Virus record (IMG/VR): IMGVR_UViG_3300035698_018616
Reading direction: 5' to 3' (one strand)
Length of the DNA: 64,000 nt
Source of the DNA: a virus
Below, one piece after another: positions 799 to 57,987 of this stretch (position 1 is its first letter; each line of letters begins with the position of its first letter). Under the pieces are notes generated by a model. That model saw only the letters and a list, made by a program, of their open reading frames with translations, was not told where the DNA came from and did not search any database. The position numbers were made by a program, and so were the translations under genes.

Positions 799-1884
799 TT
801 ACAATTTCCTTTTTAAATATTTTTCTTTAGTTTCCTTCCATGATAACTTAATTAAATCATCATAAAATAGCATTTCTGTATTGTATTTATCATTTTCAAT
901 CATGTTTTTTAGCCTTTTTGAGGCATATTTTTCTTTCCATAGATCAGTTAATGCTTTTATAGAATTATCAAATAAAGGCTGTCCATAATCTTCAGTTTCA
1001 CCTCTTAAATATTCATTAGTATTAGTGTATAACCTGCACCAATAAGAACCTCTTGGAGCATGATTAGCAGGAGGTCTTATACCATAATTACTATATATCA
1101 TGGTTAGTATCCTACCTTTAGGTCTGGAACCTTCATATATTCCTCTAATTTTTTCAGGATATTTTTTCTTTAATTCTTTTACTGCTTCCTTATATACATT
1201 ATCAGATGGTTCCAATGATATCTTACCTTCAGATGTGCCGCATTTCCTCCAATACTTCAAACGGGTGTACTGACTAAATCCACCATAAAGACTTGTAGTT
1301 GTTATGCCTATTAGTTTTTCCTTATTATAATAGGCATTCCATGTATCAACCACAGGCTTAGAACAAACCATTAGAGCAATAAGTTTACCACCTACATAAT
1401 TATATCCTAATGGTTGAGTTGGAGAGATTGAGGAACCCATAGCTGTATATCTGAGGAATTTCTTTAAACGATCATCTCTTGACCAGCCTATATATTCGTC
1501 TCTAGGTTTTAGTGATATGAAATCGGAACCTAATGATATGATTCCAATGTAGGTAAGGTCAGGTTTATTCATTACAATAAACCTTTTAATGCGACCTTTG
1601 TTAGCATTCCAATGTGCCGAATGTGTAAATATGCGGAGAGTATTCCAGGTAAGGCTTTGATCCTTAGTTATTACAGGAATAATTATTGGTTGGATTTTTA
1701 GGTAATCTTCTGGTTGGCTTGGTTTCCAAATACATTGCTTGACTTCCCACATTTTTTGCTTTTCAGCTATGGACCATTCTCTATTGTGTATTTGATGCCA
1801 ACCACGATATAGAGTATATTCCTTTATATTCATACTGGACAACATATTAAAATTTTCTTCAAACAATTTTTTTATATTACTCAT
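799..1884 (-). CDS. DUF4338 / Druantia DruA-like protein
   Basis: Motifs IGIISLGSD..RDEYIGW, PLGYNYVGGKLIAL, ITTTSLYG..SQYTRL recognised as DUF4338-type. Confidence 0.7.
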   Translation of the reverse strand: MSNIKKLFEENFNMLSSMNIKEYTLYRGWHQIHNREWSIAEKQKMWEVKQCIWKPSQPEDYLKIQPIIIPVITKDQSLTWNTLRIFTHSAHWNANKGRIKRFIVMNKPDLTYIGIISLGSDFISLKPRDEYIGWSRDDRLKKFLRYTAMGSSISPTQPLGYNYVGGKLIALMVCSKPVVDTWNAYYNKEKLIGITTTSLYGGFSQYTRLKYWRKCGTSEGKISLEPSDNVYKEAVKELKKKYPEKIRGIYEGSRPKGRILTMIYSNYGIRPPANHAPRGSYWCRLYTNTNEYLRGETEDYGQPLFDNSIKALTDLWKEKYASKRLKNMIENDKYNTEMLFYDDLIKLSWKETKEKYLKRKL

Positions 1885-23439: not shown

Positions 23440-23809
23440 TGGTGGATCTGCTCGGAGTCGAACCGAGGTCTTGACTGTATCCATTACTAACTGAGTTACA
23501 TTCATCATAAAGTTTGTGTAAATCAATGAACCCAAACTTTATAAACTGTTCATTGACCGTGTTACAATGCCTTTGTTATACACCGTTTAACACGAAAAGA
23601 TGTATAACGTATCCTGTTTAGTCTACGCCTCTTTCATACGTCCAGGAAACATATGAAGAAACGGCAAAGCCTTTAAGCGGCCATTGCATATTCGTAATTA
23701 TAATCATCTGCAATTACTTTAAGTTTCCAAACCTTTTAAGGTGTTGATTAGAATTTTCACCGAATGCAGTTGTAACAAACAAACAACCAATCGAAGCCAT
23801 TTCAGACCC
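23440..23809 (-). ncRNA. ssrA: tmRNA; tag peptide ADDYNYEYAMAA*
   Basis: 5' GGGTCTG pairs with 3' CAGATCC-ACCA with a G3.U wobble (Ala identity); GCTTCGA D-loop-like segment; T-arm CTCGG-TTCGACT-CCGAG; tag ORF 23711..23673 ending in AA-stop. Confidence 0.95.
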
Positions 23810-36587: not shown

Positions 36588-36664
36588 TGGTGGTAGCGAA
36601 GGAAAGAATCGAACTTTCTTACAACAAGATATGAGCTTGTGTCACTTACCAAAGTTCATCGCCA
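36588..36664 (-). tRNA. tRNA(CAT), degenerate (Met/Ile2)
   Basis: ACAAG-CTCATAT-CTTGT arm and T-arm; weak acceptor and D arm. Confidence 0.55.
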
Positions 36665-37998: not shown

Positions 37999-38076
37999 TG
38001 GACCGCCTGGGGAGAGTCGAACTCCCATGTGTCCATTAGCTTTCTACCGATTAGAAGTCGGTCGGCATACAGGCGG
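37999..38076 (-). tRNA. D-armless tRNA-Arg(TCT)-like
   Basis: CCGCCTG/CAGGCGG acceptor, ACCGA-CTTCTAA-TCGGT, GGGAG-TTCGACT-CTCCC; only 7 nt in place of the D arm. Confidence 0.75.
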
Positions 38077-39226: not shown

Positions 39227-39418
39227 ATGTGGTAGCCAGGGATTTGAACCCTGGACGAGGGGACTGCGAAACTGGCTAACCTCACCCCTCACGCCAATAA
39301 AACGGATGCCTTATGTTTCTGATTCGCGTTTAGCGCCCATCGGAATTGACAAATATGCCGAGCCTTCCTTTACTCCCCATTTAACGCCCGATTGTCAATT
39401 TTTACGCCACTACCACAC
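39227..39418 (-). ncRNA. Long tRNA-like ncRNA (family member 1)
   Basis: GTGTGGTAGT/GCTACCACAT terminal stem contiguous with T arm CAGGG-TTCAAAT-CCCTG; internal AATTGACAA/TTGTCAATT and GAGGGG/CCCCTC helices. Confidence 0.7.
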
Positions 39419-39655: not shown

Positions 39656-40612
39656 TTACAAATACCCACCTAACATTTCTACTACAATCTTACTTACATT
39701 GTATACATACTGCAATTCCTTCTTCTTTAAACCTTGAAGTTCATCAATGTAATCCTTGTCAAACTCTTCCTTAGCGTCATTCAGAACATACTTGATATAT
39801 TTCCCTATTTGCTTTGGATTTGAAATCTCACCATGTTTAGAAAATACACTCAGAAGCCTGTTCTTTGTTATGTAATCCTTGAAACCTTCTTGTAGTTCAA
39901 CCAATTTATCATCTACAGGTTTTCTTTCCCTCTTAGGCTTGACTTCCCCAAACTTTTCTCCCTTCTTCTTTAGATAGAACACGTTACCTATCTTGGTGGT
40001 CGGGGTATCCTCACCATAAGTTATACTATAAATCTTGTTATATGGTTTGATTACTACACCTTCAATGTTATCCCCACCTTCGGGGTACACAAGGCTTTTG
40101 ACATCCTCAACATTAAAATCTAAGGCTTCCTGGAGACCCTTAACTATACCAAAAGAGGGGATCAGAAAATCTTCTATATTGAGTAATGAGAACATATCCT
40201 CCATTTCCCAAGGTGTCAGTAACACATCATTGATAATCATGTCATAAGCCAATAGAAACTTACCATCACCATAATTGATTCTCTTTTGAATACCTGTACC
40301 AAACACCTCACAGTAAACATTAAGAGTGGATTCTGTTTCTTTAGCATATTTCTTTAGCACATCTACAACATCCATATACTTAGTTTCTACAATGAATTGA
40401 ATATTATAGAAATTTTCCTTTGGCCCTACTATACCACTTCTCTTAACTATACTCCATGTACCATCAGATTCAAAGACAAGAGAAATATTGGCACCATCAA
40501 TCTTTACCTGTATGATGTAGTCCTCTGTCTCTAATTCAGGAAACCTTTCCAGCCAATAATCAATTTCTTTTTGCCTATATGAATTATCGATGCTGAAATA
40601 TTTTCTGAACAT
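39656..40612 (-). CDS. RNA ligase, Rnl2 family
   Basis: Motifs VKIDGANIS, EVFG, FLLAYDM, EGVVIKP, YLKKK; C-terminal helical domain. Confidence 0.85.
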   Translation of the reverse strand: MFRKYFSIDNSYRQKEIDYWLERFPELETEDYIIQVKIDGANISLVFESDGTWSIVKRSGIVGPKENFYNIQFIVETKYMDVVDVLKKYAKETESTLNVYCEVFGTGIQKRINYGDGKFLLAYDMIINDVLLTPWEMEDMFSLLNIEDFLIPSFGIVKGLQEALDFNVEDVKSLVYPEGGDNIEGVVIKPYNKIYSITYGEDTPTTKIGNVFYLKKKGEKFGEVKPKRERKPVDDKLVELQEGFKDYITKNRLLSVFSKHGEISNPKQIGKYIKYVLNDAKEEFDKDYIDELQGLKKKELQYVYNVSKIVVEMLGGYL

Positions 40613-40902
40613 TATACACAACCTCCACAACATCCATATGGTATTTCAGAATTAACTTTATTTAAAACACCCTCTTTATATTCTTCTGGAAAACCATCTG
40701 GCCATTCATCAATAGTCCATGGTCCTGATTCAATATGCTCACTCCAATCATCATCAAAATAAACGGAACCACCTGAACTTAAACAATATTCACCAAAATC
40801 CCATTCTTTTCCATCAACAAATACTTGTAAAGTACCTCTACATAAGTTAGGATATTCGCCATTATATTTTATATTTATTTTTGACATTTTATCCCCTTTG
40901 TG

Positions 40903-42334: not shown

Positions 42335-42414
42335 TGGTGCTCATTCCCGGAGTCGAACCGGGAAACTGTTAGATTTGAGCTAACAAGGTATGCCAAGATT
42401 CCCTTCAAATGAGC
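42335..42414 (-). tRNA. tRNA-Leu(CAA), short variable region
   Basis: GTTAG-CTCAAAT-CTAAC, ACCA. Confidence 0.82.
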
Positions 42415-43016: not shown

Positions 43017-43105
43017 TGGTGAGGGATGAAGGAATCGAACCTCCTGACCGACCACCCTGCATAATAGGTCCAGCGGGTTACAGCCGCCGACAGGGAACAT
43101 CCCCC
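43017..43105 (-). tRNA. D-armless tRNA-Tyr(GTA)-like
   Basis: GGGGGAT/ATCCCTC-ACCA, GGCGG-CTGTAAC-CCGCT, T arm; 10 nt in place of the D arm; 27-nt variable region. Confidence 0.75.
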
Positions 43106-45288: not shown

Positions 45289-46407
45289 TTACTTACTTAC
45301 CCCTTTTATATTTATTATTGGTTTTATATAGTCCACAACTTCAATAACGATACCTTCTTGTCTACTCATAACATCACTGATATCTTTATAAGCAAACCGT
45401 GATTCATCTAAGGTACTTTTATCAGCTTTACAGACTATACCTTCCATATCCTTGATAAAATCATCTAAGTCTATGGTTTCCTTTGCTTTTCTACGACTAA
45501 ATCTCCTTCCTGCTCCATGAGAAGCGGAAGATAAATATTCATCATTACCTAAACCCTTTGTAACATATACACCATCTTTCATGTTACCAGGTATCACACC
45601 TAATTGTCCTTTGTCTGCTGGTGTTGCACCCTTACGATGTAAAACTGTACCATCAGATTGAACAATAGCATGGTTATGATTTTCGTTTATCATATCACGA
45701 ATATACATATGATGTAAACCTAAAATCTCTAACACCTTTTCCATCATTATCTTTCGATTATATAATGCATATTCTTGGGCAAACTTCATATCTTGTAAGT
45801 AGGCTTTACCATACTCACCATCTAAGTGCAAGAAACCATTAGGCAAATCTTTATCTACATTCTTGGACAACTTCATCCAATAAGACGCTATGCTATGTCC
45901 TATGTTACGAGAACCCGAATGTATGGTTATGGATAAAGAACCTCTACTATATGCTTCACCTATCTCTATAAAGTGATTACCACTACCTAAAGTGCCAATT
46001 TGTACCCACAATCTTTTTGCAACCTTTTTATCTAATTTTTTATCACCACTTGCAGATTTGAAAGATTTATAGTCCAATCCTTTCTCTCTGGAATTAAATC
46101 CTACAGGTATCTTTTCATATATATCATCAAATATGTAGTTCTCTTTACCATATATATAAGATACATGTTCACCGGACATTATACAACACATGCCGCATCC
46201 GATGTCATAGCCAACGTAAGAAGGAGAGATAACACCATCCAATAAAGCAACCCCACCTATTGGTAAAGAATACCCTACATGACAATCAGGCATTACAGCC
46301 AACACTTTCAAGAAATCCAAATTCAAAGCATAGTATATTTGTTGCTGAGCTTCTTGTTCTAATTCCTCTAAGGGTATCAAAGTTCTTAATTTATCTAAGT
46401 TAGCCAT
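45289..46407 (-). CDS. rtcB: RtcB RNA ligase
   Basis: MPDCH.G..LPIG, VGYDIGCG, GTLGSGNHFIE, HSGSR, NHNH, HRKGAT, PGNM, SHGAGR, DESR.AYKDI. Confidence 0.97.
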   Translation of the reverse strand: MANLDKLRTLIPLEELEQEAQQQIYYALNLDFLKVLAVMPDCHVGYSLPIGGVALLDGVISPSYVGYDIGCGMCCIMSGEHVSYIYGKENYIFDDIYEKIPVGFNSREKGLDYKSFKSASGDKKLDKKVAKRLWVQIGTLGSGNHFIEIGEAYSRGSLSITIHSGSRNIGHSIASYWMKLSKNVDKDLPNGFLHLDGEYGKAYLQDMKFAQEYALYNRKIMMEKVLEILGLHHMYIRDMINENHNHAIVQSDGTVLHRKGATPADKGQLGVIPGNMKDGVYVTKGLGNDEYLSSASHGAGRRFSRRKAKETIDLDDFIKDMEGIVCKADKSTLDESRFAYKDISDVMSRQEGIVIEVVDYIKPIINIKGVSK

Positions 46408-51690: not shown

Positions 51691-51719
51691 AGTGTAACAC
51701 AGAATTCTCAGAATGTAAA
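51691..51719 (-). promoter_or_regulatory. Early promoter copy 1 (TTTACA-17-TACACT, TG-extended)
   Basis: aacttagtgtaacac-N-atgtaaac motif, repeated 3 times. Confidence 0.8.
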
Positions 51720-52229: not shown

Positions 52230-52468
52230 ATTATCTATTACCTCTCTTGGATGCTTTTATAGGGTTGATGAATTTTTTAGCCTTTTCACCGCCCTCAATT
52301 ATCTTATCACTCTTCAATGGACAGGTAAATATACGATGCTTCATAGCGGGTTTTGCGTACGCTATACAGATATCACCATCTACTTTATTACACCCCACAC
52401 AAGCAGGTACTATCAATTCATGTATCATTTTTTTATCTCCTCTCTCTTTCATTCAAAATTCTAAACTT

Positions 52469-52497
52469 AGTGTAACACAAAAATTTGAAGATGTAAA
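52469..52497 (-). promoter_or_regulatory. Early promoter copy 2
   Basis: Same motif as 51691. Confidence 0.8.
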
Positions 52498-52507
52498 CAT
52501 AATTTTG

Positions 52508-52761
52508 TTGTGGTAGTAGTGAATTCCGCCATCCATTACTGAACCAGGATTCGAACCTGGACGATAGGTTTTTTGGGTCATTCCCTATCTCGGTCATTAC
52601 CCCTGCCCGATACAGACGACACATGATGTATTGTAACCGTCCCTTGCGTCTACCAATGACAAGCTCTCTGCTCATACAAGGCTCAAGCATGAGGTTACGA
52701 TCCTTCGTGCTGTCTCGACCTGTCATGTTGCCTTTACTTGCCAATTCCGCCACTACCACAA
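52508..52761 (-). ncRNA. Long tRNA-like ncRNA (family member 2)
   Basis: 5' TTGTGGTAGTGGCGGAATTGG, internal TTGGTAGACGCA, hairpin + GTCCAGG-TTCGAAT-CCTGG, 3' ACTACCACAA terminal pairing. Confidence 0.7.
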
Positions 52762-53179
52762 AATATTATCTTACACAATTTTTGGGAATTTCAGGAAATC
52801 CAAGCTTTGCTCTCTCTTTGGAAGCTCTGAAACCCCCATCATTGAGCTTATCAAGTTTCTTTTTGGGGGAAAGGACATCATACAATGCCTGTCTTTTATC
52901 AGCCTCCATCCGTTTGACTTCTTTGGCTTTATTCATATGGTTTTACCTCCTTTCAATAATTAGTCTCCACAATTTCTGTACCGATGAAATCTGTTACACC
53001 ATAATTACCATCTTTACAAATATGCATATCAAATAACCTAAGAGTAATGCCTGTTGTTGGTATACCTAAAACAATATCAACGGTAGTTGTCATTGCTGAA
53101 TCCTCACCTGAACAAGTACTCCTATCCACCTTACCACACCTACGACACTTATATAAATACTGAGCTTCCTTTTCATTCA

Positions 53180-53919: not shown

Positions 53920-53948
53920 AGTGTAACACAAAAAACAGGGAATGTAAA
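53920..53948 (-). promoter_or_regulatory. Early promoter copy 3
   Basis: Same motif as 51691. Confidence 0.8.
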
Positions 53949-57877: not shown

Positions 57878-57987
57878 ACGGCGGCTCTTTAGGAAAGGAG
57901 AATTGTTTATGAAATATTATTGGAAGTGGCCATTACTAATAATAGGAAATATCCATACTGGAGGTTCGAATCCTCCTCCGCTGTCCA
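57878..57987 (+). ncRNA. tRNA-like shell enclosing an RBS and a small ORF (57909..57992)
   Basis: ACGGCGG/CCGCTGT-CCA, T arm GGAGG-TTCGAAT-CCTCC; internal AGGAAAGGAG + ATG. Confidence 0.55.

Follow-up and report, generated by a model that had tools for sequence, protein, structure and literature searches.

The stretch of DNA analysed here, which we call the window, comprises 64,000 nucleotides of the IMG/VR virus record IMGVR_UViG_3300035698_018616 and belongs to a large, low-GC, tRNA-rich phage from salt-lake metagenomes. The stretch is present in 24 salt-lake DNA sequencing runs, and no RNA sequencing run was listed among those that contain it. On its minus strand, positions 52506-52761 hold an element predicted to yield an RNA of about 250 bases, which lies between a 56-aa ORF (52766-52936) and a 73-aa DUF6811 ORF (52231-52452), both also on the minus strand. 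The GC content of the element is 48%, compared with 34% for the whole window and 52% for the tRNA genes of the window, and the z-score of its fold is -2.1.

Read 5' to 3' on the minus strand, the element opens with positions -2 and -1 and an acceptor-like 5' strand (52753-52761), whose GTGGTAG (nucleotides 1-7, 52759-52753) has its partner at 52510-52516; positions -1:73 and -2:74 are also base-paired. Next come a first copy of tRNA nucleotides 8-16, TGGCGGAAT, which comprises U8, G9, the 5' strand of the D stem and the start of the D loop (copy B, 52744-52752), and an 87-nt hairpin with the base TGGCAAG/CTTGTCA that is inserted between D-loop nucleotides 16 and 17 (52657-52743). The remainder of the D loop and the 3' strand of the D stem follow as TTGGTAGACGC (G18 G19 ... 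C23 G24 C25; 52646-52656), and an 85-nt variable domain with three predicted hairpins and a CGT end before the T stem replaces the anticodon and variable arms (52561-52645). The T arm, CCAGG-TTCGAAT-CCTGG, occupies 52544-52560. Directly 3' of the T stem lie a 4-bp helix with a GUAA tetraloop (TTCA-GTAA-TGGA, 52532-52543), a second copy of TGGCGGAAT (copy B', 52523-52531) and a 6-nt linker, TCACTA, which is the complement of nucleotides 8-13 of copy B (52517-52522). The element closes with the acceptor-like 3' strand CTACCAC (52516-52510) and AACA (together 52506-52516); CCA is not encoded, unlike in the two tRNA-Leu genes of the window that were read. In this copy, a 27-nt extension separates the T stem from the 3' acceptor strand.

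The original prediction had described a D-arm start, a split D loop, a T arm and a closure of the 5' and 3' ends, and all of these were located on the minus strand where it had placed them. It had also seen no anticodon arm, which agrees with the absence of a 7-nt anticodon loop from the element: in the middle domain of the window copy, a stem of 5 bp closes a loop of 19 nt. The extension, the second TGGCGGAAT copy inside it and a paralogue at 39228-39416 had escaped it.

A weak sigma-70-like promoter candidate, CTGAAA-18-GATAAT (52765-52794, minus strand), ends 6 nt before nucleotide 1 and is proposed by its match to 9 of 12 consensus positions. Between the element and the next ORF lies a sequence of a phage promoter type, TTTACA-17-TACACT with TG (52469-52497, minus strand). 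This motif, with its upstream TG, occurs at three minus-strand sites within 2.3 kb (53920-53948, 52469-52497 and 51691-51719), and the repeats are probably a phage-specific promoter class. Because the promoter at 52469-52497 recurs elsewhere, the element and the gene downstream of it need not share a transcript.

The paralogue (39228-39416, minus strand) has the acceptor stem of the element, GTGGTAG/CTACCAC, a D-loop hairpin (TTGACAA.../...TTTGTCAA), a variable domain and a T arm, and is devoid of the 3' extension; its hairpin and variable domain differ from those of the element, and its sequence has diverged. It lies within a tRNA array, about 240 nt downstream of a gene for an Rnl2-type RNA ligase (39656-40633). 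The window also encodes the ligase RtcB (45289-46407). A genuine tmRNA gene at 23440-23809 was called by ARAGORN and by the tmRNA models of Rfam. Four further tRNA-like genes on the minus strand (43017-43105 and, approximately, 37999-38076, 42335-42414 and 36590-36660) were missed by ARAGORN and Rfam: two have no D arm, long variable regions and an encoded CCA, with the loops CTGTAAC (Tyr) and CTTCTAA (Arg-TCT), one has a short variable arm, the anticodon CAA and a 13-nt D loop, and another has a CAT loop. On the plus strand, positions 57878-57987 contain an acceptor-like stem and a perfect T arm, GGAGG-TTCGAAT-CCTCC, around a ribosome-binding site and a short ORF. A 361-aa ORF (799-1884, minus strand) matches the Druantia defence protein DruA (PF14236, E=4e-22), which is unexpected in a phage genome.

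ARAGORN did not call the element, though it found 27 tRNAs and one tmRNA in the window. At the element, Rfam 15 gave no match at gathering thresholds and no relevant one at E<=10, so novelty is not removed by a known family; the likeness to DUF3800 or skipping-rope RNAs that had been suggested finds no counterpart among Rfam matches with E<=10 in 52300-53000. The GenBank phages contain no match to the locus or to the 10 kb around it, and a permissive search of them with the shortest member of the family described below returned only ordinary T arms and one false match in a coding region. A neighbouring protein used as a probe for related phages found no relatives. In literature searches of incomplete coverage, a non-decoding phage RNA resembling tRNA-Leu with a split D loop was not described, and the family is apparently undescribed.

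Relatives were retrieved by scanning for a sequence pattern with a split D loop. Since the D-loop letters were fixed in this pattern, the identity of the D loop to that of tRNA-Leu across the family, including TGGCGGAAT, is by construction; the size and breadth of the family are lower bounds, since retrieval was by pattern and not by a model-based search. The scan yielded about 25 relatives in viral and metagenome contigs, namely L006, L011, L024 and a truncated L007 in viral contigs and about 22 more, within L044-L067, in metagenome contigs; two others, L069 and L071, were obtained via the 3' motif. Matches rejected as false positives of the pattern were the tandem tRNA-Leu genes L002-L005 and L008, about 30 coding-region matches within L009-L043, and L070 and L072; L068, a bacterial coding region, was also rejected. 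ARAGORN and the Rfam models, including RF00005, gave zero matches among the family members searched.

The element is conserved beyond chance. The family keeps the acceptor helix, the D stem, the T arm and the elbow nucleotides of the D and T loops, a helix projects from the D loop between nucleotides 16 and 17, and lineage-specific structured domains stand in for the anticodon and variable arms; the window copy has the same hallmarks, that is, a Leu-type D arm split at nucleotides 16/17, a variable domain, a T arm and a closing acceptor helix. The consensus of 16 members obtained with RNAalifold comprises a 9-bp acceptor helix (nucleotides 1-7 with -1:73 and -2:74), a 3-bp D stem, a 7-bp hairpin base and a 5-bp T stem, and 13 of its 24 pairs show double changes that keep the pairing. 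Paired cells amount to 96.4%, against 77.6 +/- 1.4% in shuffles with partners permuted within columns, and the covariation score is 0.51 against 0.15 in the shuffles, none of which (0/500) equalled the observed values; relatedness among the sequences can inflate these figures, but the acceptor stems differ almost entirely from one lineage to another. The proposal that the element is a tRNA-derived non-coding RNA that keeps the elbow, with its D and T arms, is supported by these helices, which are retained with compensatory changes across about 27 related loci.

Every member has, 3' of the T stem, a 7-nt complement of the 5' strand, which directly adjoins the T stem in 18 of 21. The -1:73 pair is formed in 20/21 members and alternates between U-A and G-C; D-stem pair 11:24 covaries within the family from C-G to U-A, and the T stem also covaries. 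The elbow nucleotides A14, A15, G18, G19, U48 and the T loop are kept across the family (U48 in 20/21 members), and the middle domain usually ends in (C)GU before the T stem. Members with a hairpin in the D loop retain its 7-8-bp base, with compensatory changes at pairs 7-8 and a closing pair that is U-A in most of them and lies within GAGG/CCTC in L071; the interior is not conserved. The inserts measure 18-95 nt, the shortest being the 18-nt hairpin of L046, and the middle domain measures 34-206 nt and differs between subfamilies. UUACAA or UUGUAA strings recur in middle domains in differing structural contexts. In L054 and L057, the loop just before the T arm contains a 6-nt palindrome that changes from UCUAGA to UCCGGA with its self-complementarity kept, as a kissing-loop dimer site would behave; a GAUUAAG motif beside this palindrome recurs in L044, L047, L049 and L061.

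Five members carry the 3' extension: the window copy, L056, L058, L069 and L071. Its three parts are a 4-bp helix with a GUAA cap (YUCA-GUAA-UGRG), a repeated UGGCGRAAU (the second copy) and a 6-nt linker. The capped helix reads CTCA-GTAA-TGAG in the other four members, the first pair having changed from U-A to C-G, a compensatory change. No two of the five linkers (UCACUA, CUGUUG, UCGUCA, CUGCUA and CUGUCG) are alike; even so, 29 of the 30 cells between the linkers and nucleotides 8-13 are pairable, and the differences are all transitions that preserve pairing, including an A9-U pair in L069. Unconstrained minimum-free-energy folding gives the long helix in 5/5 members, and in constrained folding the permuted fold lies 1.7-5.6 kcal/mol below the canonical cloverleaf, again in all five. 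RNAalifold applied to these members yields a 16-bp terminal helix, the hairpin base, pairs between CGC and the second copy, the T arm and the capped stub. In this consensus, the second copy takes its place in the D stem, the GCG of copy B' pairing with C23-G24-C25, and the first copy forms a helix with the linker; the pairs of the second copy with the D stem are predicted rather than proven, being invariant in 5/5 members and so untouched by covariation.

From this arrangement follows a tRNA core that consensus folding shows as circularly permuted in the five modelled members, closed by the 16-bp helix and with ends that would leave through the D loop. The closure of the 5' end by ACTACCAC, as first proposed, is real as a pairing and was understated in extent, as the predicted closing helix measures about 16 bp and takes in nucleotides 8-14, and the D stem would then have to use the second, 3' copy of the strand with nucleotides 8-16. 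The capped stub resembles the last four pairs of an acceptor stem, and the permuted architecture would be the expected result of a tandem duplication followed by trimming. In L069, the extension is present and the D loop is uninterrupted, and L071 has a hairpin with GAGG/CCUC closing pairs; taken together, these two members indicate that the D-loop helix and the extension are separate modules.

We propose that the element encodes a stable RNA that descends from a class II (leucine-type) tRNA and does not decode, a mimic of the tRNA body with variable domains that belongs to a phage-borne family, and we place the probability of this reading at about one half. When all members were scanned for a 5-bp stem with a 7-nt loop (U33, purine at 37), only the T arms and isolated, chance-like cases were found. 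The RNA would take no part in decoding and, at least in the extension subfamily, would not be aminoacylated. In that subfamily, the old acceptor end would survive as a closed stub of 4 bp, capped by GUAA, at the T stem, the second copy of nucleotides 8-16 would supply a strand of the D stem, and the first copy would form, with the linker, a terminal helix of about 16 bp. Since a free acceptor end would be missing from the permuted subfamily and an anticodon is missing from all members, the part under selection would be the tRNA-Leu body, with its elbow and D and T arms. The RNA would act through this body, which may be a mimic of, or a decoy for the host readers of, the tRNA elbow or D arm, such as LeuRS, a tRNA-processing or tRNA-modifying enzyme, or a tRNA-targeting defence enzyme; alternatively, it may be a nuclease-resistant scaffold that displays the exchangeable hairpin and the variable domain. 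The hairpin and the middle domain would then be lineage-specific payloads. We infer that the helix at nucleotides 16/17 and the permutation would have consequences for the three-dimensional fold. Most members do not have the extension and would have a free acceptor end, and these may be aminoacylated or processed by RNase P. A bolder version, in which a permuted tRNA-Leu body displays fast-exchanging cassettes as decoys or inhibitors of host tRNA-directed enzymes or defences, and thereby provides an RNA-based counter-defence, seems to us distinctly unlikely.

The genomic context bears on a rather different role, that of a cis-acting element for processing or stability comparable to the plant-mitochondrial t-elements or mascRNA. 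RNase P and 3' enzymes would cut polycistronic transcripts at the element and leave protected ends, with the inserted domains as passengers. The element is always co-oriented with its flanking genes, and at most loci its end is followed, after 16-35 nt, by an ORF that has a ribosome-binding site. It has no recurring partner gene, the downstream ORFs being mutually unrelated, as would be expected of a general punctuation signal, and RNase P requires only the stack of acceptor and T stems and the elbow. Genes encoding gp32-like, RecA/UvsX-like and UvsY-like proteins and a clamp loader lie near the element in L006 and L011/L060, a short contig (L052) has only the gp32-like and RecA/UvsX-like genes near it, and a Sak4-like annealing protein is encoded nearby in L007, L044 and L062; these recombination and replication neighbours may reflect only the early-gene neighbourhoods of related phages. 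RNA matches below the cut-off were also recorded in two of the contigs: a mini tmRNA-like match in L053 (1511-1601, plus strand; 29.6 bits against a cut-off of 47), possibly a remnant of an attachment site, and a near-threshold int-alpA RNA match in L058 (1683-1748, plus strand; 32.9 bits against a cut-off of 35.8). For members with a free acceptor end, a role in transcript processing is a fair rival. In the extension subfamily, which includes the window copy, a capped stub and ends in a 16-bp helix do not have the geometry of an RNase P substrate, and the next gene of the window has a promoter match of its own. The -1:73 and -2:74 pairs are conserved, and the domains are large, with stems that compensate between L054 and L057 (by eye, uncounted), which suggests that they are more than passengers. 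As an account of the whole family, we regard a processing element as possible and on the unlikely side.

The D-loop hairpin behaves as an exchangeable cassette, as would be expected if conserved ends recombined. In L054 and L057, the acceptor stem is the same and the variable domains are, by eye, closely similar, but the hairpin interiors are unrelated. L049 and L051 also have free-standing hairpins with the same GGCAAG/CTTGCC ends, which lie beyond the tRNA frame, and truncated copies made up of the 5' half and the hairpin were found in L007, which retains only the 5' half, and in L049. In the latter contig (2524-2980), a 36-nt direct repeat of the 5' part of the element follows a 145-aa ORF, and after this repeat come two free hairpins and about five alternating, iteron-like AAGCGWGCCA / GAAACCCA repeats. 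L055 (229-905) and L051 (178-241) belong to near-identical contigs and differ by an insert of about 650 bp; this insert lies inside the free-standing hairpin, is bounded by a 6-nt CAAGCC repeat and contains a 214-aa ORF with an HNH-like motif and no Pfam match. The D-loop hairpin of L024 (291-354) and the free hairpin of L051 (178-241) contain a look-alike of an anticodon arm with the loop CUCAAAA (Leu-CAA); the idea of an anticodon nested in the D-loop hairpin was rejected, as this loop is limited to L024 and the free hairpin of L051/L055. By eye only, the base of the hairpin was also considered as a K-turn or a tetraloop receptor, and both ideas were dropped.

Such exchange raises the alternative that the locus is a degenerate tRNA-Leu gene in which a small, MITE-like mobile hairpin that targets tRNA loops has settled, in which case no function at the RNA level would be needed. 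The free-standing and truncated hairpins, the direct repeat of L049, the HNH-like ORF within the hairpin of L055 and the duplication of TTGG at the borders of the insert in most members all lend themselves to this explanation. The insert of L071, with the borders AAT|GAGG...CCTC|GTGG, has no TTGG duplication, and the repeat is therefore not a general target-site duplication; moreover, the position of the insert is identical in every member, and no intact copy of tRNA-Leu adjoins the element in the carrier phages. Cassette exchange leaves the selection on the tRNA frame unexplained, and a pseudogene would not have retained perfect, compensating acceptor, T and D helices, together with all the elbow nucleotides, over about 25 diverged lineages. 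We consider this alternative improbable.

Removal of the hairpin restores the textbook D loop of tRNA-Leu, AAUUGGUAGA, and one may ask whether the D-loop hairpin, part of the middle domain and the 3' extension are introns of an interrupted gene, to be religated, for example by the phage RtcB or Rnl2, to a working tRNA. Both ligases are encoded in the window, Val and Cys are missing from its ARAGORN list, and the middle domain contains a UUACAA string. Nevertheless, excision cannot restore an anticodon stem-loop in any member. The hairpin base is a continuous helix of 7-8 bp from the border, and there is no bulge-helix-bulge (two 3-nt bulges with a 4-bp helix between them). The inserts, which measure 18-95 nt and lie in the D loop, are below the size of a group I core (about 200 nt or more, in the anticodon loop), neither Intron_gpI nor another intron family matches, and bacteria are not known to have a tRNA splicing endonuclease. 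We searched three carrier records (122 kb and 89% complete, 41 kb, and 37 kb) for genes encoding tRNA, RtcB and Ro/Rsr (TROVE) and found none, and the positive controls of each search worked; the presence of RtcB and Rnl2 in the window is not a family trait, and the RtcB-dependent processing envisaged in the original prediction is unlikely to be one. In these carriers, the RNA is accordingly neither part of a tRNA supplement nor dependent on a phage splicing ligase. An interrupted tRNA gene seems to us quite improbable.

A conserved tRNA-like frame with hypervariable loops, just upstream of ORFs of the same operon, is also what would be expected of an antisense regulator processed by RNase P, like C4 of P1/P7 or CI of P4, whose loops pair with a nearby mRNA and set the specificity of immunity. 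We compared the variable parts at 21 loci with the 250 nt upstream and downstream: the duplex energies are as in shuffles (most z-scores between -1.8 and +1.7), and the longest Watson-Crick matches, of 6-9 nt, are no longer than in shuffles. There is likewise no significant antisense match elsewhere in the window, and this reading appears very improbable. Finally, that the 108-aa ORF (52433-52759, minus strand) is a real protein-coding gene can practically be dismissed, as had been anticipated, for although its frame is open in the window copy, it has 1-10 stop codons in 24/24 other members checked, no homologous ORF was seen in the relatives, and conservation tracks the RNA helices and not codons.

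The reading that we prefer, of a non-decoding RNA with a tRNA-Leu-like body, would extend the roles considered for tRNA genes in phages, which are commonly interpreted as supplementing the supply of codons read or as making good the tRNAs that host defences cleave. Here, a tRNA-derived RNA unable to decode is conserved over many uncultured phages, and in several carriers it is the only tRNA-like gene. The lack of decoding and the predicted permutation that would seal the acceptor end suggest that the function resides in the tRNA body itself. Should a partner be found, the family would represent a new class of viral tRNA mimics in DNA phages, and the helix at D-loop nucleotides 16/17 and the re-threaded D stem would be compatible with selection on the elbow and useful for RNA engineering. 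The family also exposes a blind spot of annotation, as ARAGORN and Rfam miss all members searched.

Several known RNAs have single traits in common with the element. The C4 RNAs of P1/P7 and the CI RNA of P4 are tRNA-like, RNase P-processed antisense RNAs of phage immunity; like the element, they combine a phage tRNA-like fold with variable loops and lie upstream of genes of the same operon, whereas the element is much larger, has true tRNA D and T arms, and shows complementarity to its flanks at chance level. The tmRNA shares a tRNA-like frame of acceptor and T arm with a large insert at the site of the anticodon arm; the element differs in its complete Leu-type D arm, in having neither a tag reading frame nor a series of pseudoknots, and in matching no tmRNA model. 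In YrlA, the acceptor-like helix is closed and the RNA ends leave via another long helix. It is also a non-decoding, tRNA-like module with D and T arms, and the exit of its ends resembles that of the permuted fold, although the ends of the element would exit through the D loop and those of YrlA leave at the position of the anticodon stem. The likeness to YrlA that had been pointed out from the start therefore holds for topology and does not extend further: Rfam gives no match, no Ro/Rsr (TROVE) gene is present in the three carrier phage records, PF05731 (TROVE) is absent from 10 large ORFs of the window, itself a part of its phage genome, and no Ro-binding helix was recognised; the two ends form the predicted terminal helix of 16 bp.

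The bacterial class II tRNA-Leu, such as that of E. coli, was also used for comparison. It and the family both have a 7-bp acceptor stem, U8, a 3-bp D stem with G13-A22, the D loop AAUUGGUAGA, U48, a 5-bp T stem and a UUCGAAU T loop. The family differs from it by the hairpin of 18-95 nt at nucleotides 16/17, the lack of an anticodon loop, the middle domain of 34-206 nt, the extra -1:73 and -2:74 pairs, the absence of an encoded CCA and a C73 in about 40% of members, and the window copy differs further by its predicted permuted D stem and its capped acceptor stub.

Among phage RNAs, the nearest described are the stable RNAs species 1 and 2 of T4 (rnaC and rnaD). They have no D arm of the tRNA-Leu type, no D-loop helix and no sequence similarity that we could see, and both map to the end of the tRNA cluster of T4, whereas most members of the family reside in phages that have no tRNA gene. 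Like the element, they are encoded by a phage; they are stable and have no assigned function, and rnaC, as read from the T4 record, combines a T arm, CCGGG-UUCGAAU-CCCGG, with an acceptor-like closing stem, long hairpins and no anticodon arm.
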